From: Sumerlaeia bacterium
Lineage (GTDB): Bacteria; Sumerlaeota; Sumerlaeia; SLMS01; JAHLLQ01
Direction: 5' to 3'
NCBI GenBank assembly: GCA_040219255.1
Contig: JAVJSW010000008.1
Span: forward strand, 1-64,000
DNA length: 64,000 nt
Shown here: positions 327 through 57,518 of the stretch, one piece after another
Layout of the letters: each line of letters begins with the position of its first letter
Numbering within the stretch: position 1 is the stretch's first letter
The notes under the pieces: model-generated
Seen by the model: only the letters and a program-made list of their open reading frames with translations
Databases searched by the model: none
Told to the model about the DNA's origin: nothing
Translations under genes and position numbers: made by a program

Positions 327-3300
327 TCAAGGTTCGCCGACGATCATCCAGAACGCCGGCCGCCTCGCTTCTTCAGAGTCCGTGGCGTAGAAATCGGAGA
401 ATCCATTGATGCCTTCGATCGTGAAAGTTGTCCCAGCCACGGTCAGTTCTTCGCCTGCGCGAAAGGTGGATGTGCGGCGGCCTGTGGCTGTGGCGTATTT
501 GAGGACGCTGCGGACCGGGCCATCGAGATTTTCCGCGCCGGCGGGATCGTAGGACCAAGTGATGGTCGCTTCTCCGCCAGAGAAGCCGCCGGTAATTCGC
601 AAGGCTTCGTCGAGGAAGCGTTCGGGGTCATCGCCCGGTGGAAACACGTCGCCGACAAGGCGTTCCACAGTGATGGGACCATCCATCCCCGTTCCCGCCG
701 ACCAGACCAAGGTGACTGACGAGGAGGGGGACATCGGAAAGACCGTTGGCACTGTGGGATCAATGATGGCGAGGGTCAGTGGGCTGTTGGCAAAGTCGTT
801 GTATATGACAGGACCGGCGGCCTGCGAGGGAGGCGAGACATTGCCCGAGGCATCCTCGGCGATCAAACGGACTCGATAACTGCCGTCTTCGGCCGGCGTG
901 TACACAAAGGACCTCGCCACGAGATCGACGAGAGCGCCGGGGGCCGGGGTGAATGGGCCGCCATTGCGGCTGGACTCGAGACGGACTTCGGTGAGCGTAT
1001 TGAGTTCCGCAATGGCGAAGTTGCCGGACAAGGGTGATGCGACAACCGCCGTCGCATGCACTGAGATGGACTGAACGACCGGCGCCGCGGTGTCATACGT
1101 GAAGACGATGGGAGTCGAACCCATGGCCGGATTGTTGGGCGGGGCCACGGCGGTGACGCCCGCACTGGAAATCGTTACCGAAACTTCACCGTCGGCATCT
1201 GGCGAGATCACGATCTCATAGGTCGTATCACTCTGCGCCGTGATGGAACGCACAGAAGCGTTCTGAGTGGCGACAGCCGCCGCTGAAAAACCATGCACGG
1301 CTTCGCTGTAAGTTGCGCGCATAAGAACTTCGCTGGCGCTTGTTTCCGTCCCTTCAGAGACGACGGAACTATTGAGTGAAACTGTTGGGCTGGCGGAGTT
1401 CCTGGTTACCGTCCAAACTGCTTCGCTGGTGCTGTTGCCCGCCGCGTCGCTTAGCGCACCGGCCTCCAGCCGCAGGGAAAGGATGCCATCAGGCGGATCA
1501 GCGACCGCGAAGGAAGCTAACGCTCCCTCGACCTCGATACCGGTGGCTGGCGTCCCGTTGACCGTAAGGGCTCCCACGCTGACTTCGGCAAAGACTTCAT
1601 CGGTGCGAACTTTGACTTCTGACAATGCGCTGACAATGGCCCCATCCGCAGGCGTCCACTCAACGATGATGGGGCTAGTGGCGTCGATAATGACTTGAAG
1701 CGGTTGCGAAGGAGGGCTGGTGCCAAAGCCAGCAGCGGTGGCAATGGCTGTCAACTGGTGGGTACCTTCGGATAAGTCCCTTCCCGGTGTCGCGTTCCAT
1801 AGCCCAGACCCATCGGCATCCGCGCTGGCAATATCGCCGTCCCGGTCGCTTGTGATCGTGATTGTGCTGCTGGGATGCGCCTGACCGGTCAAGACGGGGC
1901 GGCGCAGACGAGTCAGGTTGTCGCTGTCGTCGATGCCGCTGTCGCTCTGCGCCGCCAAGTCGGGGCGCGATGGCGCATCGAGAACCGGTTGCTGAATTGT
2001 GGCGCTCAATGCGCGGTTGGTCTTATTCCCCGCGATGTCTTCCGCAAAGACCAGGAAGATGTAGTTTCCGGCAGGCAGTGCCTGGTTGACAGAAAGTCTA
2101 AAGTTTCCCTCGGTATCCGCGTAGGCGGAGTCGAAGGTCGTTTTCCCGACGGCGCTCAATCGCACGGCCGTTTCGGGCTCCACTGTTCCTTCGAATGAAG
2201 GCGTTGTATCCTGGGTGATATTGTCGCCTTGGGTGCCGGTGTCGCTGGCGGGGTCGAGACGATAAGAAAGGCCGGGCTTGACCTCTAGATCCACGACTAC
2301 GGTCAATTCAATGGGAACAGATTGATTTCCCGCTTCATCGGTCAAGTAAGCGCGGAAGAGCGTTTCGCCCGCCGGCAGAGGAGCGATAGAAAATGTTCTA
2401 AACAACACCGATCCTCCGAATGGCGCGAGGAGGTAGGTTGCAAGTTCGCCACGGTCAACGGCGTCAACTGTCAAAGGTAGCAGGCCGAGGCCTTTGGCTC
2501 TCAGCCAAGGAGCCGTTTCCATTGTAATGTTGTCGGTTCTGCTTCTACCTGTGTCGTGGTTTGAGTCGAGGATCAAGGAGGTTGGAGACGGAGGCGGCGT
2601 GCGATCCACGGTAATAGCTAAGCTAGGACCTGCATTGCCGTCGCCGAGGGTAGGTCCCCCCAAGGCTTTCCCGCTTTCGTCCACGATGCTGTTGTCGTCC
2701 TCCAGGAGAAGATTGATGGAGCCGTCGCCGGTGCCAGTGTCGATCTCGATGTTCCAAACTTTGCCCCCTCCAGAGACGGAAGAGACCACGGCATCGGAGA
2801 GGGTGCCGTCCGCGGCAATCTGGAAATCAGAAACCGACACACCGGAAACCGGCTCGGTGAAAGTTGCCTGAAAAACGACTGTATCCGCGTTGGTGGGATT
2901 GGGTCCCAAGGCCGGGGCGAGTTCTCGCACCAGGGGGGGCAGTGTGTCGGTCGCCGAACCGATCACAAGATACCCCACTTGGTCCACTGTCGCGGTGACT
3001 AGGCCCCGGTTGAGGTCGAGCGAGGCGGTGACTTGCTCCCAGGGTCCCTCCGGCGCATCGGCGCGGTAGAGCGTCAGTTCCCTCGCATCGGCGCGTCCCA
3101 GGTTCATCGCTCCGAAATCGAATGTCACCTCGACCTCCGTCCAGCCGGTCCGATCGGTCTCGAGCCGCCAAAGCCTTGGCGCTGGCTTGAGCGTCGGAGG
3201 AAGCCCGCTTACCAGGTCAAGAGAGCGCCACAGCGTTACCGACTCGTGACTGAGATTGTCACCGCCATCGTAGTCGAGGAAGATGCTGGAAGCTGGCGAA

Positions 3301-4922
3301 GAGATGAGGGCGTTGCCAGAGGCCAGACCTATACCACGGCGGGGAGCGTTTCCCGCCCGGACAAACGTTCGCCACGCCGCCGTCGCAGGCGGATTCGCGT
3401 CGCTGTGAAAGACCCATGCGTGGCCATAATCATGGGGACCGGCGACGTAGAAGTCGCTTAGCCCATCGCCGTTGGCATCCCCCATAGCGGCGACACCTTG
3501 ACCCAGAAACTGATCCACCCAGCCTGTGGGGCACCAGGGACAGAAGAGTTGACGGGCGCCCGGAATGTCGTCGGCTGAAGTGTCGAGCACGACCGGATCG
3601 CTGGTGGCTTTGCCAAAAACGATGGCCGTGTAGCCATCATCGTCGAAGGCCAGGGAATTGGCCACCAGCAGATCCATGGCGCCGTCGCCATTCCAGTCGC
3701 CCAATGGCGCAAGATGGGTCAGGCCATCCATTCGCCAGTCATCCAGAGAAACCGAAAAAATCGTGTTGGCGGAGACGCCGATATCGATGGTTTCCGAAAT
3801 CGCTGCTCGCCCGGGAACGAGAAGCCCATTCAAGGGGCCGAAAGGTTCGTCCGACGCCGCCACGACGAGATCCCCGTACCCATCCCCATTGACATCGCCA
3901 AGGCCGCTCGCACCCGACTCGATGCTCGCAATACTGCCTTGATACGTCCGCAGCGCAGTGCCCGTCAGGACAGAGACGCGCGGTCCCGGATTTCCCGAGA
4001 GCGTTAGCGGATCCGTGCCGATTCCGCCAAAAACAATGTCGATCCGGCTATCCACGCCCGTGCTGCTGAGAGATGAAATCAGCAGGTCGTCATAGCCATC
4101 GCCATTGAAGTCGCCCGCTGGCTTCACGTCCTGAAAATCGCGATCCAACGAATCAAACGAGATCTTCAAGGTTTGGGCGGTGGCACTGCCGACTTGAATA
4201 TTCGCCCGGTTCGATCGGCCAAGGACGACATAGACCCGGGCTGCAATGGTTTCAGTGGCATCTGTCACGACGGCCAAATCACCCAATCCATCTCCATTGA
4301 AGTCGCCAATGCCACAGATTCTGTGCGTGAAGCCTCCACCGTCCGCGGGCGACAGCAGACGCGTGGCCTCGCCCGCGGGATTGCCAAGGTCCACCGCTTG
4401 ATTGTCTCCCTTGCCATAGACGATCCAGGGACGAACCTCGTAGGGGTCGGGAGCGATGGCCTCTAGGAACGCGGCATCGGGAGACCCATCGCCATCGAAG
4501 TCTCCCAAACCCGCCAGTGCGGAGATGAGCGTATCGGCGGTTTCGGCCATTTGGATTTCCATTCCATTGGAACCCAGTTCACCCAGGTTGACGTTCGTTG
4601 GATCGGCTTTGCCGTAAATCACCGCAACGCGGTTCAATGGCCCCAATCCCACGATCACATCGTCGCGCCCGTCGCCATTCATGTCGCCCACGCCAGCGGC
4701 GGGCGCGCCGAGATCGTCCTCGTCCAAAGGCGCCAGGTCCCTGGGAATATTCACGACCCATCCGGGGTGCGTTATTCCCACGTCAAAGGTCGAAAGATTG
4801 GGCTCCGCGGCTGCGGGAGCGCAGAAGCTGACCAAAGTGGGAACGATGACGTTCGCGAGGACCAAAGGCCGAAGAGTGGGAAACCGAAAATAGCTCATGA
4901 CAATGGTGTTGCTGGACCTCAC
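327..4922 (-). CDS. large secreted/surface adhesin: FG-GAP (integrin-alpha-like) propeller plus Ig-like (Big) repeats
   Basis: 1531-aa ORF; signal peptide; repeated GDxNGDGxxD Ca-binding motifs; DSG..SDNIT....P Big_3-type repeats; C-terminus RPAFWMIVGEP; true start may be a downstream Met. Confidence 0.85.
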   Translation of the reverse strand: MRSSNTIVMSYFRFPTLRPLVLANVIVPTLVSFCAPAAAEPNLSTFDVGITHPGWVVNIPRDLAPLDEDDLGAPAAGVGDMNGDGRDDVIVGLGPLNRVAVIYGKADPTNVNLGELGSNGMEIQMAETADTLISALAGLGDFDGDGSPDAAFLEAIAPDPYEVRPWIVYGKGDNQAVDLGNPAGEATRLLSPADGGGFTHRICGIGDFNGDGLGDLAVVTDATETIAARVYVVLGRSNRANIQVGSATAQTLKISFDSLDRDFQDVKPAGDFNGDGYDDLLISSLSSTGVDSRIDIVFGGIGTDPLTLSGNPGPRVSVLTGTALRTYQGSIASIESGASGLGDVNGDGYGDLVVAASDEPFGPLNGLLVPGRAAISETIDIGVSANTIFSVSLDDWRMDGLTHLAPLGDWNGDGAMDLLVANSLAFDDDGYTAIVFGKATSDPVVLDTSADDIPGARQLFCPWCPTGWVDQFLGQGVAAMGDANGDGLSDFYVAGPHDYGHAWVFHSDANPPATAAWRTFVRAGNAPRRGIGLASGNALISSPASSIFLDYDGGDNLSHESVTLWRSLDLVSGLPPTLKPAPRLWRLETDRTGWTEVEVTFDFGAMNLGRADARELTLYRADAPEGPWEQVTASLDLNRGLVTATVDQVGYLVIGSATDTLPPLVRELAPALGPNPTNADTVVFQATFTEPVSGVSVSDFQIAADGTLSDAVVSSVSGGGKVWNIEIDTGTGDGSINLLLEDDNSIVDESGKALGGPTLGDGNAGPSLAITVDRTPPPSPTSLILDSNHDTGRSRTDNITMETAPWLRAKGLGLLPLTVDAVDRGELATYLLAPFGGSVLFRTFSIAPLPAGETLFRAYLTDEAGNQSVPIELTVVVDLEVKPGLSYRLDPASDTGTQGDNITQDTTPSFEGTVEPETAVRLSAVGKTTFDSAYADTEGNFRLSVNQALPAGNYIFLVFAEDIAGNKTNRALSATIQQPVLDAPSRPDLAAQSDSGIDDSDNLTRLRRPVLTGQAHPSSTITITSDRDGDIASADADGSGLWNATPGRDLSEGTHQLTAIATAAGFGTSPPSQPLQVIIDATSPIIVEWTPADGAIVSALSEVKVRTDEVFAEVSVGALTVNGTPATGIEVEGALASFAVADPPDGILSLRLEAGALSDAAGNSTSEAVWTVTRNSASPTVSLNSSVVSEGTETSASEVLMRATYSEAVHGFSAAAVATQNASVRSITAQSDTTYEIVISPDADGEVSVTISSAGVTAVAPPNNPAMGSTPIVFTYDTAAPVVQSISVHATAVVASPLSGNFAIAELNTLTEVRLESSRNGGPFTPAPGALVDLVARSFVYTPAEDGSYRVRLIAEDASGNVSPPSQAAGPVIYNDFANSPLTLAIIDPTVPTVFPMSPSSSVTLVWSAGTGMDGPITVERLVGDVFPPGDDPERFLDEALRITGGFSGGEATITWSYDPAGAENLDGPVRSVLKYATATGRRTSTFRAGEELTVAGTTFTIEGINGFSDFYATDSEEARRPAFWMIVGEP

Positions 4923-5243: not shown

Positions 5244-6338
5244 TTGACAGAGGAGGAGCTGACCAAAGCCTTTTCTCTGCTGCGGCAGGATTTTCCCGGG
5301 GCCCACGTGCCAGAGAACGTGACGTGGCGCATTGCGCGATCTTCCAAGAAGGGCATCGAACTCGACGACATCCGTACGTCGGAGGACAACGAGGCGATAG
5401 CGGATTGGATGCTGAGTGAGGTGCGTGAGGCTTGCGGCGCTGACGATAAGTCAGAGGTGCACGCCTCGCTGGCCGGGGGGCGCAAGACGATGAGCTTTCT
5501 GCTGGGCGCCGCGATGCAGTTGTGCGCCCGCCCGCAGGATCGGCTCTATCACGTTCTGGTGCCACCGGAGTTCGAGGTTCGGGGCTTCTATTTTCCGCGA
5601 GCCTGTTCGTCGAAGGAGTCGCTCCTCGAAGTGCGTGGCGGGGGAACCATCGACGCCGCCAAGGCGACCGTCGACCTGGCCGAGGTGCCTTTCGTAAGAC
5701 TGGCTCCGCTGCTGACCGGCGAAGACCTCTCCGAGTTGAACTTTCGCGACCTGATGGCTCGTGCGAACGACGCATTGTCGGACGAATACGGCACCGTTTC
5801 TGTCATCGTACCCGAGCGCGGCAAGTCCGGCAAGGCGGTGGTACGGATTAGCCTGCCTGGCAATCATCAGGTGGACGTGTCGTTCGGCAGTGTGACGAGC
5901 AAGGAGTTCGTGGTTTATTCCTGGCTTCTCTCGCGCCAGCAAAGGGGCTTGCCGCCGCTGGTGCTGATGGACCGCGAGAAGTTCCGCGACCATTTGGACG
6001 ACCTGGTGCTTTGGTGCGAGCATCTCGGAGTGCGGGGCGACGAGTTGAAGCAGTACTCTGATCTGGCCAACGAGTTGGATCAGGCCCGCCGCGACGACCA
6101 ACGCGGCACGGAAGACAAGGATCACGTCGGCGAGTTCTTCCAGAAATCCTGGTACGACCCGCTGAAGGTTTTCCCCGCCCGCGTTCGCGATAGGCTGCAA
6201 AAGGCGTTCCGCGAACAGGCGCGCCAGTGCGGCCACGGCAAGTACACCATCGAAACAAAGGACGGTGATAGCAGAGTGGCTTCCTGGCACGTGACGATCC
6301 CACCCAAGAACATAATCCTACCGGGCGACTCTCGATGA
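5244..6338 (+). CDS. CRISPR-associated CARF protein, NE0113 family, N-terminus apparently missing
   Basis: DDIRTSEDNEAIAD and HASLAGGRKTMS...RPQDRLYHVLV are the NE0113 signature; the usual N-terminal strand/helix is absent and an in-frame TGA lies at 5238-5240. Confidence 0.85.
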   Translation: MTEEELTKAFSLLRQDFPGAHVPENVTWRIARSSKKGIELDDIRTSEDNEAIADWMLSEVREACGADDKSEVHASLAGGRKTMSFLLGAAMQLCARPQDRLYHVLVPPEFEVRGFYFPRACSSKESLLEVRGGGTIDAAKATVDLAEVPFVRLAPLLTGEDLSELNFRDLMARANDALSDEYGTVSVIVPERGKSGKAVVRISLPGNHQVDVSFGSVTSKEFVVYSWLLSRQQRGLPPLVLMDREKFRDHLDDLVLWCEHLGVRGDELKQYSDLANELDQARRDDQRGTEDKDHVGEFFQKSWYDPLKVFPARVRDRLQKAFREQARQCGHGKYTIETKDGDSRVASWHVTIPPKNIILPGDSR

Positions 6339-6384
6339 AGAGACTGGAAACCCTGCTTGTAGATCGCGATTTGGAGACCAAACC

Positions 6385-7596
6385 ATGACTGAAGAAACGC
6401 TCATCTGCATCCCCGGAAAACCCCGCACAAACGCCGGCGAGTACGAAACGGCCCGCTATTCAGCGGTCGGCCGCGGCGAGACGGCGGACGAGCGCGCAAC
6501 GCCACTGTTGGCCCTTGTCGAACTCTATCGCCCCGCGCACTTGGTTGTCCTCTGCACGCCCGAGGCACTGGAGGCTGTCGAATTGTACGAGCAATGGGCC
6601 GCCGAAGAGAATCTTGAACCAAGACCACAGGTGCACCCTGTCAGTATCGAGATCGGCGATGGCCCAGCAGCTATCCCCACCTTGTTGTCGACCATTGCGG
6701 CCGTCGAACCGCCGACGCCGGATGTGCATCTCGACCTGACCTTCGGGCCGCGCTCCGTGACCATCCTGGCGATGCTGTCCGCCCTGGTCCAGGCCGCGGC
6801 GGGGCGATGGTCGCTTCGTCGGCTCACCTACGTCAACTTCGAGGCCCGGCCGTCGCAGGCCCCGGACGCTCCCGTGCCCATCGAGGACCTGACGGCCTAC
6901 CTTGCACTCCCCGCGCTGGCCACCGCCGTCACGAACCTGCGCGAACGTGGCGATCTAGCGGGCTTTGCCGACGCTGCCGCACCCTTCTTCGATTCTGACC
7001 AAACGGGACTCCAGGAAGGAGACCTCGCCGTTGTCCGCGACGCCGTGGCTTTCCTGCGCATCCGCTCGCTGATCGATGGCAGCGCCAATGGCGCCCTCGG
7101 CCGCATCATCGGAGCCCTTCGCCGCCGCGAGGGTGCCAACCCCATGCTGGCGCCTCTGATGGCCGACGCCGAGGAAGTCCTTGCCGGACTGCGCCGCCCC
7201 AAAGGCGCAGAGTCCGCCTCGCCCCCACACTTCGCCGCCATCGTGCAATGGTATCGCCAACACAACCAACCCGACCGCGCGCTTCTGCTGGCCAGCGAGG
7301 CATTGACTATGCTGGTCTGCACCCGGCTCCTTGATTATGAATATCCGCAGAAGCTCGGCGGCGATTTCTGGAAGGCTCGCGACTACTACATCGCCGCGAG
7401 TTCCCAGGCCAGGGGTGACGCGACTCGCGAAACGCTTGCCGGTGAATGTTACAGCCTCTGGGAACATATGAGCAAAGTTCGCGGCGATTTCGCCCACGCC
7501 TCCCTCACGTCGAAACCCTCCCCACACAGCACCGTCAGCGAAGACCACGTTAACCCCCTTCTCGACCGATTCGGCGAACTCTGCGACCGGCTGTGA
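6385..7596 (+). CDS. csx1: Csx1/TM1812-like CARF-HEPN ribonuclease
   Basis: HLDLTFGPRS (DxTHG-like CARF motif) and C-terminal RGDFAH (HEPN R-X4-H); RBS GGAG upstream. Confidence 0.75.
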   Translation: MTEETLICIPGKPRTNAGEYETARYSAVGRGETADERATPLLALVELYRPAHLVVLCTPEALEAVELYEQWAAEENLEPRPQVHPVSIEIGDGPAAIPTLLSTIAAVEPPTPDVHLDLTFGPRSVTILAMLSALVQAAAGRWSLRRLTYVNFEARPSQAPDAPVPIEDLTAYLALPALATAVTNLRERGDLAGFADAAAPFFDSDQTGLQEGDLAVVRDAVAFLRIRSLIDGSANGALGRIIGALRRREGANPMLAPLMADAEEVLAGLRRPKGAESASPPHFAAIVQWYRQHNQPDRALLLASEALTMLVCTRLLDYEYPQKLGGDFWKARDYYIAASSQARGDATRETLAGECYSLWEHMSKVRGDFAHASLTSKPSPHSTVSEDHVNPLLDRFGELCDRL

Positions 7597-7681
7597 AGCC
7601 CCGCGCCGCGCAACGTTGCAGGTCCTTGAGTCAGGCTCCCCGGCGTTGCCAGTCCGCCGGCGTCTCCCATGCCCATAGCCC

Positions 7682-7849
7682 ATGGACGACCGCGCCATCT
7701 CCATGATTCGCGACGCCCTCATGGAACTCATGGACCTTGCCCAGGACAGCCTGCGCATCTACCGTGTCGAAGAATCGGCCATCGACCGCGCCGAGCACCT
7801 GGGCCGCCAGCCCGAGTACGAATTCATGGGCCAGACCTTGATCTTCTGA
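7682..7849 (+). pseudogene. cas2: 5'-truncated Cas2 (C-terminal half)
   Basis: Manual translation MDDRAISMIRDALMELMDLAQDSLRIYRVEESAIDRAEHLGRQPEYEFMGQTLIF matches the I-C-type Cas2 C-terminus (D..DSLRxY...EHxG...LI); in-frame TAG at 7676-7678; directly upstream of the leader. Confidence 0.75.
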
Positions 7850-8003
7850 TGGGGGGCCATGCCCACTCCAGCGGACCCCAAGAAAGCGCGCCATGCCCAC
7901 CCCATCCGCAGGATTCGTCAACCCCGGGAAAGACCAAAAAGGGAGGAGGTTGACGATTCTCACCCCGCATCCGAAGCTCTACCAAGGGTTTCAAGGGGAT
8001 GCA
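7850..8003 (+). promoter_or_regulatory. CRISPR leader
   Basis: Non-coding 154 bp between the cas2 stop and the first repeat; repeats end in GTTGAAAC, which gives + orientation. Confidence 0.65.
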
Positions 8004-8124
8004 GTCACCACCCCTCCCCGGAGTGGTCACGTGTTGAAACCCTGAGTCTTCACGCCGTATGACGTGTCAACCGATTCGAGTCACGACCCCTCCCCGGAGT
8101 GGTCGAGTGGTCACGTGTTGAAAC

Positions 8125-8203
8125 GAGCAACATGCTTGGCCGAATCCTGATGGGAATTCGGGAAAATCTTCGGATATCTGACCCGAAAACCGTCAGGGGG
8201 TAG
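8125..8203 (+). pseudogene. 3' end of a NADAR-family (YbiA-like) gene, cut at repeat R2
   Basis: Frame from 8126 reads SNMLGRILMGIRENLRISDPKTVRG-stop; N-x-LG-x-x-LM-x-(I/V)R-x-x-L is the NADAR C-terminal motif. Confidence 0.6.
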
Positions 8204-8362
8204 CATCCCATGGGGTATCGAGCACCGTTGAATAATCAACAGAAACCTTGAACTTCTTCCGAAAAAATGGTCCATAGCGCAACACCATGAATCTCTTCTC
8301 ACAAGGTGCCCCCGCCTCCCACACGGCTAAATGCTGATGAGGCAAAGGCACCTTGGAGAACT

Positions 8363-8641
8363 CTACTCGCCGAATATCTTGTTCATGAATGCGTAGTACG
8401 CCCACGCGACATCGATCAGAATACCGGCTATGAAGGCAAGTATCGGCAGAACTGCGAAGAATGCTGGGACGTCCACCCCGTTCTTCGTATAGGTAACTCC
8501 TGCCTCACCAAAAGATCCGAAGAGCAAGACCACGGGGACAGCAAGCACAAGGGCGACCAGCGCCAACACGAACGGCAGCGCTACCATTCTGGCTATCAGG
8601 CCGGCAGTGGATAGGCGTTTGTCTCCATTGTTACCGTTCAT
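8363..8641 (-). CDS. small two-TM membrane protein (insert A)
   Basis: 92-aa ORF with two hydrophobic helices; AAGGGG RBS upstream on the minus strand. Confidence 0.6.
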   Translation of the reverse strand: MNGNNGDKRLSTAGLIARMVALPFVLALVALVLAVPVVLLFGSFGEAGVTYTKNGVDVPAFFAVLPILAFIAGILIDVAWAYYAFMNKIFGE

Positions 8642-8667
8642 CGCTTCGTCCCCTTAACCAAGAAAAT

Positions 8668-8685
8668 AGTCTCGACGTCGAGACT
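8668..8685. repeat. perfect 18-bp palindrome AGTCTCGACGTCGAGACT, copy 1
   Basis: Exact palindrome in the divergent intergenic gap; identical copy at 10000-10017; 1-mismatch copy at 11257-11274. Confidence 0.9.
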
Positions 8686-8819
8686 GTCTTCTCACTGCCG
8701 CGACATCATAAGTTTTCATGCAAGCGCGCACTCCAGCCAACAAGCTGACACTCCGGCTGATGTGCGCGCAAGCCGTTTTCACCACCATGGCTGAAACAAC
8801 AGCCACGAAAGGCACTACT

Positions 8820-9077
8820 ATGTCCACCAATACGACCGAGATCGTCAACACCAATCCCGCCGCCGACCACGAAGGGGGTGCATCTCCCGAGGACCGAAAG
8901 GTCTGCATTGACAAATACCTCGCGGCGGCTAAGGCTTTCCGGGCCAAGTACCAGAAGAAGGGCTTCTACTACGACGAGAAGTCCTCTGAGTGGATGAAGG
9001 CCACGAAACAGCAAAAGGCTGATAACCGTTTCGAGGGAAGTACATGTCAGAGCCAAAGCCCGGTGAGCGTAGCTTGA
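8820..9077 (+). CDS. small hypothetical protein (insert A)
   Basis: MSTNTTEIVN... preceded by GAAAGG RBS; lies within ORF 8718..9077. Confidence 0.55.
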   Translation: MSTNTTEIVNTNPAADHEGGASPEDRKVCIDKYLAAAKAFRAKYQKKGFYYDEKSSEWMKATKQQKADNRFEGSTCQSQSPVSVA

Positions 9078-9082
9078 CAGCC

Positions 9083-9259
9083 ATGGAAAAAGGCAAGCGG
9101 GGGACCATCCATGATGGACTCTCCTGGCCTGGGCTTTTCGCGGTGATCGGATACATCATCGTCAAGTGGTTCTTCTACGTCTTCCTACCAGCGGTGGTTT
9201 TCGCGATCATCGTCTTCATCCTCACGATCCTTGGCTTGTTCTTCGGCATCATAAGCTGA
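9083..9259 (+). CDS. small membrane protein (insert A)
   Basis: MEKGKRGTIHDGLSWPGLFAVIGY...; long hydrophobic C-terminus; followed by a terminator. Confidence 0.55.
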   Translation: MEKGKRGTIHDGLSWPGLFAVIGYIIVKWFFYVFLPAVVFAIIVFILTILGLFFGIIS

Positions 9260-9281
9260 CCTTCACCACTGTCGCCATTCA

Positions 9282-9337
9282 AACCCCTCGTCTCCCTCTG
9301 CTACACCAGCGGACGGAGACGAGGGGTTATTTTTTTT
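9282..9337 (+). terminator. intrinsic terminator
   Basis: AACCCCTCGTCTCC / GGAGACGAGGGGTT 14-bp stem followed by a T-tract. Confidence 0.8.
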
Positions 9338-9585
9338 ACCCCACTGGTTGGCACTGGCACTATACGGCACCAGCACCCCACCCGCCGTCCCTTGGCACTG
9401 GCACCATTTGGCACCCTGGCCACCCTAAAAAGGGAGTAACAAGTCCAAATGCCAAGTTTTGGTCAAAACTTCAAAATTCACCCCCAAAAAAGAGGGGCAA
9501 TACAGCCTCGTCACGGAAAAATGGGCTGAAAACTAAGGGTTTTGTAAGTCTTCTCATATCAATGGACTACAAAACACGAGGCAGG

Positions 9586-9932
9586 TTTTCGATCATAGGG
9601 TGGATGCCACTTTTCAACCACCAGGATCACCCCTCACAGAGGAAGCTTCCAGGTTGTCTTGGCCTGCTGGGCGAGCGAAGCGAGCCCCTCTTCCCCCGGA
9701 TTGGCACTCTGAGAGGCTACTTGGCTGATATTGCTCAGCTTAGCCGCTCTCTGGGCTAGGCCTGGGGGATTCTTATTCTGTGTTGCGGTTGATTGGCTAT
9801 CAGCGCTCTTTTTGGGCGAGCGCAGCGAGCCCATCGTCTCTGGTAAGGGCCATTCCTTGGCACTTTTCCAAGTCAAACAATATCAACACTCTACAAATCA
9901 GGAGGTAACTTTTCGATCATAGGGTGGATGCC
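9586..9932 (+). repeat. 23-bp direct repeat TTTTCGATCATAGGGTGGATGCC (9586-9608, 9910-9932) enclosing two GGGCGAGCG(A/C)AGCGAGCCC motifs (9669, 9814)
   Basis: Read directly from the sequence; similarity extends imperfectly on both flanks. Confidence 0.85.
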
Positions 9933-9999
9933 CATTTTCCACCCTACCGAAGGCTGCCCTCCAAGCAAACATCCAAACATCACAAACCACCCTCCAACC

Positions 10000-10017
10000 A
10001 GTCTCGACGTCGAGACT
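10000..10017. repeat. perfect 18-bp palindrome, copy 2
   Basis: AGTCTCGACGTCGAGACT about 90 bp upstream of ORF 10108. Confidence 0.9.
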
Positions 10018-10107
10018 AACCCTCATCACCACCAACTACCCTCCAACCACCCATCCAACCCATCAGCATCCAAGCATTCCACCCCCCCCTAAAGGACCCA
10101 AAACCCA

Positions 10108-10509
10108 ATGCCCATCTACGATACAGCGGAAAAGCTTCTCCTTGGCTACCTGACCATTGCAGCCCTGTGGCTCGTTATTCATAGGTACTATGCCCGAACA
10201 CTCTTCCAAAAGTGCCTGGAGCCGAGAAGCGAAACCATCATCAACAGGGTCAGAGATAGGCTCGTCAGCCACTCTAGAGGCGAAGCAGAGACCTTCCTCC
10301 TCGACTGGGCCATCCAAGCAGCCACCTACCACATCGTCTCCATGACACCAAAGTACTGGGAGATCAAAGCCGGATCCCTAGAGGAGGAAGTTATTTCGCT
10401 GAAAGCGGAGCAGGCTGTGCTGAAACACATTAGAGTCACGACCCCTCCCCGGAGTGGTCACGTGTTGAAACGCCAAGAAGGCCGGTTGTCGGCCAGGAGA
10501 CGTTCGTGA
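10108..10509 (+). CDS. hypothetical membrane-anchored protein reading through CRISPR repeat R3 (chimeric C-terminus)
   Basis: AAAGGA RBS; N-terminal TM; repeat translated as VTTPPRSGHVLK; TGA overlaps the GTG of the next gene. Confidence 0.55.
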   Translation: MPIYDTAEKLLLGYLTIAALWLVIHRYYARTLFQKCLEPRSETIINRVRDRLVSHSRGEAETFLLDWAIQAATYHIVSMTPKYWEIKAGSLEEEVISLKAEQAVLKHIRVTTPPRSGHVLKRQEGRLSARRRS

Positions 10510-11093
10510 GCGACACGTACCGCAATTTCGAAGACGTGCTGCGGCATCACCCGGACCCAAGGTTCCGGGTCGTCGCCGTGCCGCAGTCATCACCCGTTCT
10601 GATTGCCGCTCCGCATGGAGGCGGAATTGAATTTCAAACGGACGTGATCGCACGCCACGTGGCCCGCAAAGGATCATTCTCCCTCTACCAACTTGTGTGG
10701 ATGGGGAAGCAAGCCCGCGATGCCCACATTACGAGCCACCGATTTTTTGAAAAGGACCTCGATCTCCTTCTGAAGAGACACCACTGGACCGTCACCATAC
10801 ACGGTTTCCGGTCGGAGCGACCGTGCGTGGAGATCGGCGGGATGAACGAGAAATTTAAGTGTGCCCTTTATGAGGCTATGTTAGAACACGATATTTCCGC
10901 GATATTTTCTAAGAATATTCGCGAAGGCGCGCACCCGAAAAATATATGCAATAGGGGGCTCGGCATCAACGGCGGCGTTCAACTCGAATTTAGCTCGGCA
11001 ATCAGAAGCATTTTTCTCGATAACTACGACGAACAGTGTCGAGCAGTACGCTCAATTTGCTCTGGAATTTCAAGATTCGCAGGTGATTTTTAA
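10506..11093 (+). CDS. poly-gamma-glutamate hydrolase family protein (DUF867/YjqB/PghP-like), insert B
   Basis: IAAPHGGGIE, HITSHRF, TIHGF and HPKNICNRG...GVQLE motifs; AGGAG RBS at 10495-10499. Confidence 0.85.
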   Translation: MSDTYRNFEDVLRHHPDPRFRVVAVPQSSPVLIAAPHGGGIEFQTDVIARHVARKGSFSLYQLVWMGKQARDAHITSHRFFEKDLDLLLKRHHWTVTIHGFRSERPCVEIGGMNEKFKCALYEAMLEHDISAIFSKNIREGAHPKNICNRGLGINGGVQLEFSSAIRSIFLDNYDEQCRAVRSICSGISRFAGDF

Positions 11094-11390
11094 TGAACAA
11101 GGACGAGAGACCAAAAAAAATTGCGAGCTCGTCAGTTCGACGAGAATTTGCCCGATCTGCCTGTGGAGCATGGCCTAATCCAGTCGGTCATTTTAGACGA
11201 TGCAGAGTCCCTGGTCGAAGTCACGACCCCTCCCCGGAGTGGTGACGTGACGAAACAGTCTCAACGTCGAGACTGAACTGCCCGTCTTCTTGCCGGTCAC
11301 GCCCCCGCTCCGGCGGGGTCGCCCGTTGAAACAAGGGCGCGCCATTGCAAGCGCCCGCCTGCGCCAGCAGTCCCGACCCACTTCTACAAA

Positions 11391-11442
11391 CAACGCCCCG
11401 CCCCGTCCTGATCTTATCGCTCAGGGCAGGGCGGGGCTGTTG
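11391..11442. terminator. GC-rich stem-loop at the array end, between the array and the convergent helicase gene
   Basis: GCCCCGCCCCGTCCTGA / TCAGGGCAGGGCGGGGC imperfect inverted repeat; no clear T-tract. Confidence 0.45.
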
Positions 11443-11624
11443 GCGTCAGGGTCAGGGAGCGACAGTGTTGAAGACACAGTGTGATCACAAAACACGGCGG
11501 GGGGGGTGGAATCGTTGTGGGCACACCAGGTGGGCGGCTTCACGGGAACGCGCGCTCCGCCGAGGAGATGGAGAAGATGGGCTTCGGAGGATCGGCCGCC
11601 CTGTCGTTGGCGTCCTTGGCGAGT

Positions 11625-13304
11625 TCAAGTGAAGTTCGAAAGTCCACCTTCTGCCACGTTGCAATCGCCGCCTTCCCCAATACCCAATTCGGCCAGGACG
11701 CCGGCGGTGGGGTCGGCTCCTGAATCGAGAATGGCGGCGAAGCGGGCAAGCGTGGCCAGCCGATAGGCCCGGCGCTCCTCGACCGTGGTCAGCAACCCAT
11801 CGAGCGCGTTGTCATCGAGCGGATTTCCCCGGCGCAGGAAAAGGCACTTGTCGGGCGCGGAGGTCAGACGAAGCCGTCCAGCCCCAAAAAGGCCGAACAA
11901 TTGATCCCGAACAGCGTGCAGGGGTTGTTCCAGCCGCCGCGCGATCGTGATGAGCATGCCAGTGCGCGTCATTCCCCTGATCGTTTCGAAGGCGGCGCAG
12001 CTTTGCGGCGGCGCTTCGAAGCAGGCGATCGTGCCGATGCCACGGCCGAGCACCTGGACGCATCCGGCGCGCACAAGGTGGTGGAAAGACGTCAGCGCGT
12101 GATCGTCGCCCCCGAGCGTTTCATAGAGGTTCCACGTGGTGGCGTGGTCGGTGAGCGCCAGGCGTTGGTCGAGCACGGCAACGAAATCGCTGGCGCCAGG
12201 AAACTGCCCGGCTATGAGATCGCGCCGCACCGCCACGTTGGTGGGGGTGTAGAGCAGAACACCGCGCGCGGCGAACCCATCGCGCCCGCCCCGGCCCACT
12301 TCCTGGTAGAACTGCTCGGCGGACTCGGGCATCAGATAGTGTACCACCAGCCGGATGTCGGGAATGTCGATGCCCATGCCAAAGGCGCTGGTGGCGAAAA
12401 CGGTGTGAAGCGAGCCGTTGAGAAAACCGGCCAGCACGCCGCGCTTTTCCTCGTCGGTGCGGTCGGCGTCGAAGTAGTCCACGCCTTGCACGGGACCACC
12501 GAAGTGGCTGGCGAGCGAGCTGGTCCCGTACCTTCCGGATTTGCGGTGGACGTAAACCAGCGTCTTGCCTCGGCCGGGATCGGCTAGGAGATCTTCGAGG
12601 CGCGCCAGCTTGGCGTCCTCATCCTCGTGGCTCTCCACGGAAAGCTCCAGGTTTGTGCGGCGCAGGCAGTCGCTGCGTAGAACGGCTGATTCATCGAGTC
12701 CGAACTCGGCGCGGATTTCCCTCTCCTCGCGCGGATTCAATGTCGCCGTCAGGCCCAACAACGGCGGCCGTTCTCCATCGTCGAAGACGCGGTGGAGAAA
12801 AGATGGCAGCCCCTTGTAGGATGGGCGGAAGCTGTGGCCCCACTGCGAAATGCAGTGCGCCTCGTCGATGACAACGAGGCCGATGCGGTCACGAACGCGT
12901 TGAAGAACGTACTCGACAAAGCCATCGGAGAAAGCTCGCTCGGGTGAGAGAAAGAGGAAACGCGGGCGCGCATCGTTGAGCACCTCGTCGCGCAGGATTT
13001 CGTACTGGCGCTTGCCGCTGATGCCGCAGTGCAACTCGGTGGCGAGGAGCCCGAGAGAGCGGAGCACGGCACATTGCTGGCCAATCAATGCGCGCAGCGG
13101 CGAGACGACCAGCGTGAGTCCACCGCGCACAAGCCCGGCGACCTGGTAAACGAGCGATTTGCCGCTCCCCGTGGGGGCGAGATAGAGCAGCGACTCGCCG
13201 CGGACAAGGCGGTCGATGGCCTCCTCCTGCCGGTCGCGGAAGTCAGGAATCGCTGGAAAGTGGCGAGCGAGAGCATGGCGAATTGTTGGGGCGGCAGCGG
13301 TCAT
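11625..13304 (-). CDS. RecQ-family ATP-dependent DNA helicase (no HRDC domain)
   Basis: APTGSGKS, IDEAHCISQWGHSFRPSY, TAT, ATSAFGMGID and QEVGRGGRDG motifs; ATG at 13304 overlaps the upstream stop (ATGA). Confidence 0.9.
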   Translation of the reverse strand: MTAAAPTIRHALARHFPAIPDFRDRQEEAIDRLVRGESLLYLAPTGSGKSLVYQVAGLVRGGLTLVVSPLRALIGQQCAVLRSLGLLATELHCGISGKRQYEILRDEVLNDARPRFLFLSPERAFSDGFVEYVLQRVRDRIGLVVIDEAHCISQWGHSFRPSYKGLPSFLHRVFDDGERPPLLGLTATLNPREEREIRAEFGLDESAVLRSDCLRRTNLELSVESHEDEDAKLARLEDLLADPGRGKTLVYVHRKSGRYGTSSLASHFGGPVQGVDYFDADRTDEEKRGVLAGFLNGSLHTVFATSAFGMGIDIPDIRLVVHYLMPESAEQFYQEVGRGGRDGFAARGVLLYTPTNVAVRRDLIAGQFPGASDFVAVLDQRLALTDHATTWNLYETLGGDDHALTSFHHLVRAGCVQVLGRGIGTIACFEAPPQSCAAFETIRGMTRTGMLITIARRLEQPLHAVRDQLFGLFGAGRLRLTSAPDKCLFLRRGNPLDDNALDGLLTTVEERRAYRLATLARFAAILDSGADPTAGVLAELGIGEGGDCNVAEGGLSNFT

Positions 13305-55114: not shown

Positions 55115-56383
55115 TCAGATCGTATGAACCATCATGGCGTCGCGCAACTTGGGCTCGAACCAGGTGGACTTGGGCGGCATGATGCCCCCTTCGTCGGCGA
55201 TGGCCATCAGGTCCTCGACCGAAGTGGGGAACATGGCGAAGGCAACGGCGTACTGGCCGCCGTCGACCAGCTTGACGAGTTCCCGGGGGCCGCGGATGCC
55301 GCCGATGAACGCGATGCGGTCGCTCGTGCGGGGGTCGTCGATGCCCAGCAGCGGGGTCAGGACATGGCGCTGCAAGACGGCGACATCGAGCCGGTCGGCC
55401 TCCGTGGCAGCCTTGGCCGCGTCTTCCGACCATCGCACCGTGTACCACTTGCCGGCAAAATACATCGTCATCTCGCCCTTTTCCGTGGGGAGCAACGAGT
55501 CGTCCGGGGTGCCTTCTTCGACTTCGGCGACGCCTTCGAGCTTCTTCATGAAGACTTCCGGCGTGAGTCCGTTCAGGTTCTTGACGACGCGGTTGTAGCC
55601 GAGGATCTGCATTTGGTTGTGGGGAAAGGTGACGGTGAGAAAGTAGGCGACGGCGTCTTTGGCGACGAGATCGCGCGAGCCGCCGGATTCCTCCTGTGTG
55701 GCGGTCTTGGCGCGCTGGCGGAAGACACGGGCGGCGGCGGCGCTGCGGTGGTGGCCGTCGGCGATATAGAGAGCCGGAACGCGTTGAAAGGCGCTTTCGA
55801 TTTTCTTGACCTCCGCCGGATCGGAAATCACCCAGGCGGTGTGGCGGATGCCGTCGTTGGCGGTGAAGTCCACAACCGGATTGTCGGCGGCGGCTTCGGC
55901 CAGGAGCAGGTCGGTTTCGGGCGTGGAACGGAAGGTGAGGAAGACGGGGCCGGTCTGGGCGCCGGTGATTTCGATGTGGCGGGTGCGGTCGTCTTCCTTA
56001 TCGGGGCGCGTCAACTCGTGCTTCTTGACGATGCCCCGGTCGTATTCGGTGCAGCTCGCGACAGCGACGAGGCCAAGCTGTTCATGTGAACCCATAACAA
56101 GGCGGTAGAGGTAATAGCAGGGCTTCTCCTCGCGGAGGAGCGCGCCGTTGGCGATGAGTTCCTTCAGGTTGCGGGCGGCCAGCTCGTACGCCTCGTCGGA
56201 GTGTGCGTCGGCGCCTTCGGGCATTTCGATTTCCGGGCGGGTGACGCGCAGGAACGAGAGCGGATTGCCCTCGGCCATGACGCGAGCCTCGTCGGCGCTC
56301 ATGACGTCGTAAGGAGGGGTGCAGATCTGTTGCGCTTTCGCGGGATCGGGACGCAGGGCGCGGAAAGGTTTGAGAGTGGCCAC
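55115..56383 (-). CDS. DUF1015 family protein
   Basis: PPYDV, IVKKHELTR.DKE.DR, YIADGHHR and MPPKSTWFEPKL motifs. Confidence 0.92.
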   Translation of the reverse strand: MATLKPFRALRPDPAKAQQICTPPYDVMSADEARVMAEGNPLSFLRVTRPEIEMPEGADAHSDEAYELAARNLKELIANGALLREEKPCYYLYRLVMGSHEQLGLVAVASCTEYDRGIVKKHELTRPDKEDDRTRHIEITGAQTGPVFLTFRSTPETDLLLAEAAADNPVVDFTANDGIRHTAWVISDPAEVKKIESAFQRVPALYIADGHHRSAAAARVFRQRAKTATQEESGGSRDLVAKDAVAYFLTVTFPHNQMQILGYNRVVKNLNGLTPEVFMKKLEGVAEVEEGTPDDSLLPTEKGEMTMYFAGKWYTVRWSEDAAKAATEADRLDVAVLQRHVLTPLLGIDDPRTSDRIAFIGGIRGPRELVKLVDGGQYAVAFAMFPTSVEDLMAIADEGGIMPPKSTWFEPKLRDAMMVHTI

Positions 56384-56537: not shown

Positions 56538-57518
56538 TCAGGCGACAGGTCCACGCAAAATTTTATCGGCGAAGTCCTCAATCAGAGACTCGATTTCCGC
56601 CCGCCGCGCCAGAACGGCCAGCCAATCGGCGGGCAATCCACCTTCGCCATAAAAGGCTCCGGCCAGCCCGCCCGCCACCGTTCCCGTGGTGTCCGTGTCC
56701 TCGCCCAGGTTCACGGCGCGCAGCACGCACTCGGCATAACCGCCAGTGGTCAAAAAGCACCACAGGGCTGCCTCCAGCGTGTGCATCACATAGCCGCCGG
56801 ACCCGATGTGGCTCTCTGGCAGGGCCAGCCACTGGGCCAACGAACGCTCGAGCCGCGGACGAAAGTGGGTGTCCTCCCCGGGGCAGTGCTGCTCGATCCA
56901 GGCGAGTCCATCGGCCCGGGCGCGATCCCACGCGGCTTCCTTGCCCTCGCCCGCAAGCAGAGCCCGCACCATGGCGCAGTAAACCACGCAGGCTCCGACC
57001 GAGCGCGGGTGCGCGTGGGTCAGGCGGGAGGCGACGGAGGCAGCCTGTGCCAAATCGGCGAAGGATCCATGATGCCAGAAAAGCGCCACCGGCATCGTCC
57101 GCATCAGCGAGCCGTTGCCGTTGCTGTGTTGGTCCGTGGCCCCCGCTTCGCGCGGGTCCGCGACGGACCCGTATCGCCGAAGCGCCCCCGCCGTCGTGAC
57201 GCCGATGTCGAAGACTTCGCCGTGCGGAGTCCAGAGGGCCTCGTCATACCAGGCGCGGAATAGATCGGCGGCCCGGCGCCACCACTCACCCGCGCCGCCG
57301 GTCTCAGTGAGGGCCTGAGTCAGGCAGAGCATCATCGACGTGTCGTCGGACCACGTACCGGCGGGCTGGTCGTGTGTACCGAAGGCGCGCATGCTGGTGA
57401 CGGGATTTCGCTGGACCGCGGCACGGGATTGAAACTCGACGGGAACGCCGAGCGCATCGCCGAGGGCGGCTCCAAGGATGGCCGCCCGAAGGCGTTCGGT
57501 GAGGTGCGAGTGGGACAT
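56538..57518 (-). CDS. ADP-ribosylglycohydrolase
   Basis: GDALGVPVEF, GTWSDDT, GNGSLMR and GEDTDT motifs. Confidence 0.93.
   Translation of the reverse strand: MSHSHLTERLRAAILGAALGDALGVPVEFQSRAAVQRNPVTSMRAFGTHDQPAGTWSDDTSMMLCLTQALTETGGAGEWWRRAADLFRAWYDEALWTPHGEVFDIGVTTAGALRRYGSVADPREAGATDQHSNGNGSLMRTMPVALFWHHGSFADLAQAASVASRLTHAHPRSVGACVVYCAMVRALLAGEGKEAAWDRARADGLAWIEQHCPGEDTHFRPRLERSLAQWLALPESHIGSGGYVMHTLEAALWCFLTTGGYAECVLRAVNLGEDTDTTGTVAGGLAGAFYGEGGLPADWLAVLARRAEIESLIEDFADKILRGPVA

Follow-up and report, generated by a model that had tools for sequence, protein, structure and literature searches.

A private 18-bp palindrome shared by a CRISPR spacer, a kilobase insert in the same array and a tRNA-linked mobile element of a Sumerlaeia bacterium, with a possible operator function

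The stretch of DNA analysed here, hereafter the window, is 64,000 nucleotides (nt) long and comes from the genome assembly of a Sumerlaeia bacterium (GCA_040219255.1; contig JAVJSW010000008.1, positions 1 to 64,000 of the forward strand). It contains a CRISPR array of five repeats on the + strand at 8004–11332, in which two long inserts, A and B, occupy spacer positions ahead of an ordinary spacer, S4 (Table 1). The exact 18-mer AGTCTCGACGTCGAGACT, which is a perfect 18-bp dyad, is present twice in insert A, and AGTCTCAACGTCGAGACT, a copy of the same palindrome with one mismatch (G7 to A), makes up the first 18 nt of S4. A motif search of the window confirmed these three sites, and the array layout assumed by an earlier annotation made from the letters alone, the sequence-only reading, holds as well. 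In 100 dinucleotide-preserving shuffles of the window the palindrome had no match at two or fewer mismatches.

The whole genome (5.35 Mb, 83 contigs, 63.6% GC) contains six copies of the palindrome at one or fewer mismatches, three in the window and three on another contig, C14, both regions being low in GC. The C14 copies lie within 1.4 kb of one another, those at 55957 and 56590 being exact and that at 57306 having its last base changed. Beyond these six there are one site with three mismatches and ten with four, and the 12-nt and 14-nt cores of the palindrome occur genome-wide exclusively at the five sites outside the spacer. The palindrome is absent from all 24 other genomes of the order that were searched. 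IMG/VR gave two matches, each at a single site, a 596-Gb genome collection gave 11 loci against about nine expected for a palindromic 18-mer by our own arithmetic, and a metagenome collection searched with G or A at position 7 gave 27 single-site loci. The 40 public loci show no protein-level similarity to the inserts or to the C14 element, and their DNA likeness is confined to 21–40 nt around the motif; the public matches are at about the rate of chance. Palindrome clusters with symmetric variants such as AGTCCCGACGTCGGGACT and AGTCTCGCCGGCGAGACT were seen on contigs of metagenome-assembled genomes (MAGs) of Clostridia/Lachnospiraceae, which are low-GC Firmicutes (L012, L018/L019); both arms are altered together in these variants, which look like an unrelated repeated hairpin family.

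Repetitive extragenic palindromic (REP) sequences and bacterial interspersed mosaic elements (BIMEs) are short host palindromes repeated in intergenic DNA. The sequence-only reading had set a common host repeat of this kind, scattered over the genome, against its own proposal. Such a dispersed repeat, which would number tens to hundreds of copies over the chromosome, is rejected by the counts, since all six copies lie in foreign DNA at two loci on two contigs, none occurs elsewhere in the 5.35 Mb, and the next-best site has three mismatches. These observations support the view that the palindrome is a cis-element repeated in, and private to, foreign DNA.

The five copies outside the spacer are all located outside the preferred gene models, 19–163 nt from the nearest candidate start of an open reading frame (ORF), and the copy at 8668 lies 26 nt upstream of the ATG of the minus-strand ORF for a predicted membrane protein. 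The palindrome is conserved exactly while the flanking sequences are unrelated in blastn and flank comparisons, and such perfect conservation amid unrelated flanks accords with a binding site under selection. When single-stranded, it folds into a weak hairpin with a 7-bp stem and a 4-nt loop (−5.4 to −6.8 kcal/mol), which favours recognition as duplex DNA. Its 18 bp fall within the 14–20 bp of dyad symmetry sought in an operator. The copy at 8668 alone resembles a terminator, on the minus strand, through a T-rich flank that the other copies do not have.

The C14 copies sit where the GC content drops from about 0.64 to 0.49–0.57, in a region that begins directly after a tRNA-Arg(ACG) gene. This region encodes a tyrosine integrase (PF00589 at 4.2e-10, phrog_1 at 8.5e-24), a small ORF that we read as a candidate excisionase-like gene and that has no family match, and a minus-strand ORF of 529–616 aa, depending on the start chosen, that is Rep_trans-like. 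A 1.4-kb control region without convincing genes bears the three palindromes and is followed by an orphan ORF of 443–599 aa, after which the element is truncated where the contig ends at the border of an insertion sequence (IS) copy. The tRNA-Arg gene, the integrase and the Rep_trans-like initiator identify the C14 element as a real mobile element. Partial inverted copies of the tRNA-Arg 3' end are found on contig C24 at 3098–3145 (+) and 4349–4426 (−), where they adjoin an ORF whose tail-spike-type domain is weak; these copies may mark the other end of the C14 element or serve as its attachment (att) sites, or as those of a second element.

Three weak but concordant lines of evidence suggest that the minus-strand ORF encodes a Rep_trans-type rolling-circle initiator. 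The nearest clusters in an Atlas search carry PF05144 (score 0.93). HMMER, run exhaustively over 1.84 billion representatives, found six distant homologues (E 7e-7 to 6e-4), four of which have sub-threshold matches to PF02486 or PF05144, and the conserved motifs align. The structural model is poor overall (mean predicted local distance difference test score, pLDDT, 50.8), though its N-terminal domain is usable, with blocks in residues 11–140 mostly at 70–85, and its two best matches among 48,161 chains are the rolling-circle initiators 4cwc_A (Z 10.3, root mean square deviation (rmsd) 5.3, 185 residues aligned) and 4cij_A (Z 9.4, rmsd 5.5, 207 aligned). Neither this ORF nor the 599-aa form of the orphan ORF has a match in Pfam, PHROGs or NCBIfam that reaches the cut-off, a word-indexed homology search with both gave self matches alone, sequence searches of the PDB returned nothing, IMG/VR holds no locus related to either large ORF or to P0123, and the tRNA is the sole scoring Rfam match in the element. 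Assignment of the 599-aa ORF to family A DNA polymerases was considered on one Atlas row (0.77) and on sequence motifs and, without support from Pfam or the PDB, was dropped.

Insert A and the C14 region share no blastn similarity beyond the palindrome and a few flanking bases, and no convincing tblastx similarity. A second dyad, TGGCAC(0–6 nt)[T/G]GGCAC, has 18 copies genome-wide, three of them in insert A (9349–9414) and two in the C14 region (57027 on the minus strand, and 57344), the latter directly following the third C14 palindrome. Thus 5 of the 18 lie within about 4.5 kb against about 0.015 expected, for a pattern that was derived from insert A and made slightly wider once the C14 region had been seen; the strict T form leaves one C14 copy. 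These dyads could be iterons or a second type of operator. Together with the three C14 palindromes, the dyad motif supports a tie between insert A and a mobile-element family.

Spacer S4 has the same length as S1, 39 nt, and lies between repeats R4 and R5, so that it has the position and length of a bona fide spacer. Set against the flanks of the five resident copies, ten in all, the 21 nt that follow its palindrome match at 2–6 of 21 positions. The full protospacer, which the sequence-only reading had suggested looking for, was not found elsewhere in the genome or at the public loci bearing the 18-mer, since none of the 40 loci continues like S4 and the best has mismatches at 13 of 39 positions. 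The 21-nt tail has no match in IMG/VR and one chance match, in a genome that has no palindrome there. Because the resident flanks differ from S4, the protospacer would be another copy or a relative. S4 may therefore be an old immune record from a palindrome copy that is absent from this assembly and from the collections searched. The sequence-only reading had derived the ordinary spacer and the giant insert from the same element: the shared palindrome does trace both to one invader family, and the other 21 nt of S4 do not extend this to any resident copy.

These observations lead to the explanation that we prefer, at about even confidence, namely that one mobile-element family has in the palindrome a dyad-symmetric site for protein binding, probably an operator. 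The data establish the copy number, the confinement to foreign DNA, the positions outside the preferred gene models, the second motif and the kind of genes nearby; protein binding, transcriptional control and the spacer's history are what we infer. One family would have left its DNA in this genome twice, as the tRNA-Arg-linked C14 element and as insert A in a spacer position of the array. A dimeric protein encoded by the element would bind the identical sites before several transcription units and switch them together, and the binder could be some repressor or else the Rep protein, through its uncharacterised C-terminal half. In S4 the palindrome would be a non-working site, an immune record from another copy of the site in a related element that was taken up while the array was active.

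Temperate phages and integrative elements have operator palindromes in several copies, such as the lambdoid operators and the many repressor sites of mycobacteriophage L5. The palindrome described here resembles such operators in being a short dyad that is identical at several control-region sites, is placed between divergent genes and is absent from the host chromosome. It differs from them in that no repressor gene can be named, the site is common to two otherwise dissimilar segments, and one copy is in a CRISPR spacer.

Several results weigh against an operator. None of 48 small ORFs matched a helix-turn-helix (HTH) or ribbon-helix-helix (RHH) family, nor did any larger ORF of the two loci, and a promoter scan found no sigma-70-like promoter beside any copy of the palindrome. 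The status of the copies as upstream of genes hinges on the choice of start codons. The public call for the Rep gene (596 aa) places the copy at 55957 inside the coding sequence, and we favour a later start, since that is where the six distant homologues begin; the public call for the large orphan gene (443 aa) has its start about 500 nt beyond the palindrome. The loci and collections searched yielded no related element with a repeated palindrome of similar kind, and neither of two comparative loci, G016 and a Verrucomicrobiota MAG, has a repeated palindrome. The S4 protospacer was not found, so that the immune-record step is one that we infer. The Verrucomicrobiota MAG has, just before its rep gene, an ORF whose C-terminus was read by eye, without a family search, as integrase-like.

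The main rival, which we consider about half as probable as an operator, is that the palindrome is the origin or nick site, a double-strand origin or an origin of transfer (oriT), of the adjacent Rep_trans initiator. Rep_trans-family initiators nick inside an origin palindrome (ICRII of pT181) and usually require an adjacent specificity element. The Rep protein would extrude the palindrome as a hairpin and nick it, and nicked or broken DNA would explain why a spacer starts exactly at the site; the two copies in insert A would also permit Rep-driven excision of the intervening 1.3-kb segment. Consistently, a Rep_trans-like ORF with the structural and family likenesses given above, including nearest Atlas clusters that carry PF05144, adjoins the copy at 55957, and no separate regulator gene was found among the ORFs searched. 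The locus thus resembles the pairing of ICRII with Rep_trans proteins in the pT181 family (RepDE in PDB 4cwc, and 4cij), a Rep_trans-like gene lying beside a palindrome that can form a hairpin. It is unlike that family in having several copies, perfect symmetry, a loop of just 4 nt and an integrated element with an integrase, while the family matches of the Rep-like ORF stay below cut-off and its model is of low confidence. Moreover, it would be unusual for an origin to come as three copies in 1.4 kb and as two in insert A, which lacks a rep gene, a perfect palindrome reads the same on both strands and leaves no choice of strand, the hairpin is weak, and the flanks of the palindrome, where a specificity element would be sought, are not conserved.

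The remaining explanations are all improbable to differing degrees. S4 could be the stump of a third, mostly deleted foreign insert that brought the palindrome with it, an idea of some small weight: the array already has two kilobase inserts at spacer positions and no S4 protospacer appeared in any search; against it, S4 is exactly as long as S1, and a deletion that leaves just one spacer length between repeats would be an unlikely coincidence. Less probable still is that site-specific recombination at the palindrome moves or builds the inserts between the repeats. A perfect dyad with a 6-bp centre would have the form of a recombinase core site, the palindrome of S4 directly abuts a repeat, and the half-site AGTCTCGAC matches the 5' end of the repeat with its preceding base (AGTCACGAC; 8003–8012 in the window, and where the remaining repeats start) at 8 of 9 positions, an agreement attained by 116 half-sites and 153 repeats out of 20,000 shuffled versions of each. 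The suggestion of the sequence-only reading that the palindrome builds the cassettes is nevertheless unlikely on position: the copies of insert A lie 543 and 417 nt inside its borders, insert B has none, and all four insert junctions fall exactly at repeat ends without a half-palindrome. In addition, family searches detected no integrase or recombinase among the ORFs of the inserts, and the sole integrase, that of the C14 element, sits at a tRNA site. A combined reading, equally unlikely, takes the palindrome both as two inverted mimics of the 5' end of the repeat (8 of 9 bases) and as a Rep_trans nick site whose ends feed short and kilobase pieces of element DNA into the array at repeat borders; if this were true, the element family would fill and silence the array that targets it, or the adaptation machinery would capture long fragments from Rep-made ends. 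The least probable of all is that an S4 CRISPR RNA (crRNA) pairs with the palindromes and represses the captured genes, as the sequence-only reading had also put forward. S4 does match the palindromes at 17 of 18 nt, and on both strands because of their symmetry, but pairing ends after 18 nt, with 2–6 of the next 21 matching. No RAMP-family protein, the family of the type III effector subunits, was found in this 92%-complete genome, the locus retains just CARF genes and a possible cas2 stump, and the sole effectors found are two complete-looking type I-C systems with different repeats. TTC is the protospacer-adjacent motif (PAM) of type I-C, and none of the ten 5' flanks of the palindromes is TTC. 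A strong terminator on the array strand (−37.6 kcal/mol) also lies between the leader and S4. The proposal is not borne out.

A private operator-like site in an uncultured bacterium would, taken alone, be ordinary. Here the palindrome and the TGGCAC dyads are the sole sequence threads that join an old spacer, a 2.3-kb insert bearing genes and an integrated rolling-circle-type element. The link indicates that the kilobase inserts are invader DNA of a family that the array had already recorded, and it narrows the ways in which they arise to two: long fragments are captured, or the array is invaded by what it targets. The palindrome also provides a concrete 18-bp probe for a binding protein.

Table 1. 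Positions of the array, its inserts, the palindrome copies and the neighbouring genes in the window
Feature	Position	Strand	Remarks
Csm6/NE0113-type CARF gene	5244..6338	+	cas remnant
Weak TM1812-like gene	6385..7596	+	cas remnant
55-aa ORF resembling the Cas2 C-terminus	7682..7849	+	weak alignment to the genome's own Cas2, E 0.002
CRISPR repeat R1	8004..8040	+	adjoins leader
Spacer S1, 39 nt	8041..8079	+	
CRISPR repeat R2	8080..8124	+	internal 8-nt tandem duplication (GAGTGGTC twice)
Insert A, 2310 bp	8125..10434	+	GC 0.50–0.55
Predicted membrane-protein ORF, 92 aa, orphan	8363..8641	-	divergent from 8718–9077
Palindrome copy 1 (exact)	8668..8685	.	between divergent ORFs 8363–8641 (-) and 8718–9077 (+)
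ORF in insert A	8718..9077	+	divergent from 8363–8641
Intrinsic terminator	9282..9337	+	20-pair hairpin then T8, array strand
Three TGGCAC dyads	9349..9414	+	within two 24-nt direct repeats
Palindrome copy 2 (exact)	10000..10017	.	90 nt upstream of ATG of ORF 10108
ORF, 133 aa	10108..10509	+	first 109 codons within insert A, remainder through R3
CRISPR repeat R3, consensus form	10435..10471	+	read through by ORF 10108–10509
Insert B, 748 bp	10472..11219	+	one complete hydrolase-family gene, no palindrome
Poly-gamma-glutamate hydrolase family gene	10506..11093	+	PF05908, 4.6e-35
CRISPR repeat R4	11220..11256	+	3 mismatches
Spacer S4, 39 nt	11257..11295	+	trailer-most spacer
Palindrome copy 3 (G7 to A)	11257..11274	.	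first 18 nt of spacer S4
Degenerate terminal repeat R5	11296..11332	+	8 mismatches

The two inserts differ in content. The ORFs of insert A have no match in Pfam, PHROGs or NCBIfam. The 109 codons of ORF 10108–10509 reach the border of insert A exactly, and no homologue of this ORF was found in 74 other genomes of the phylum. Its stop overlaps, in GTGA, the beginning of the hydrolase gene of insert B, and the two inserts may form a single transcription unit across the CRISPR repeat. The best homologues of the hydrolase are of equal length and 36–42% identical. The terminator of insert A (z −9.3) was matched in stability by none of 200 shuffles. Insert A also carries direct repeats of 80 nt at 9540–9619 and 9864–9943 (76% identity, conserved core TTTTCGATCATAGGGTGGATGCC) and of 26 nt at 9668–9693 and 9813–9838 (88%), and these families have no Rfam match. 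Neither insert had a blastn match in phage and plasmid collections, and Rfam gave nothing over 7600–11700 except a chance match to mir-665 (E 0.065).

An nhmmer search of the whole genome with a profile of the five array repeats found these five repeats alone at E<0.9, and the repeat is absent from the 24 other genomes of the order, from IMG/VR and from genome_contigs. An additional degenerate repeat considered at 10404–10426 has no support from the profile. The duplication in R2 (8104–8120) could be due to slippage or be the footprint of an element once inside the repeat. Among sequencing runs, two runs of one study hold 0.05–0.06 of the sampled words, and their contigs align at 7600–8032, 10431–10471 and 11525–11699 alone, and bear neither on the insert junctions nor on excised circles or the assembly. 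A contig from another metagenome has the same leader and first repeat with different sequence upstream of 7681, and a second metagenome contig has the array's repeat after unrelated sequence.

Foreign DNA has been described in CRISPR arrays before. In Streptococcus pyogenes, the prophage PhiAP1.1 is reported to integrate into CRISPR repeats (Varble et al., bioRxiv 10.1101/2020.10.09.333658). The array described here resembles that case in having foreign DNA bracketed by repeats that interrupts transcription of the downstream spacers (10.1101/2020.10.09.333658). It differs from PhiAP1.1 in that its inserts are 0.75 and 2.3 kb long, are two and adjacent, have no integrase or phage structural genes and lie in an orphan array remnant. 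Tn7-like transposons target CRISPR arrays in Cyanobacteria (PMC11837452), which is a likeness in that mobile DNA prefers such arrays. Those transposons have a fixed insertion position inside spacers and bear Tns genes (PMC11837452), whereas the junctions here coincide exactly with repeat ends and a transposase is lacking.

The array is a decayed orphan, and the cas remnant at 5244–7849 consists of the CARF genes and a possible cas2 stump. The cas2-like ORF may be a truncation, given the different sequence that a related strain has upstream of 7681. None of 39 spacers of the other arrays in this genome matches the inserts or the C14 element. At positions 1–260 of contig C49 the first spacers of that contig are repeated in inverted order, which resembles an assembly fold-back where a type I-C array ends.

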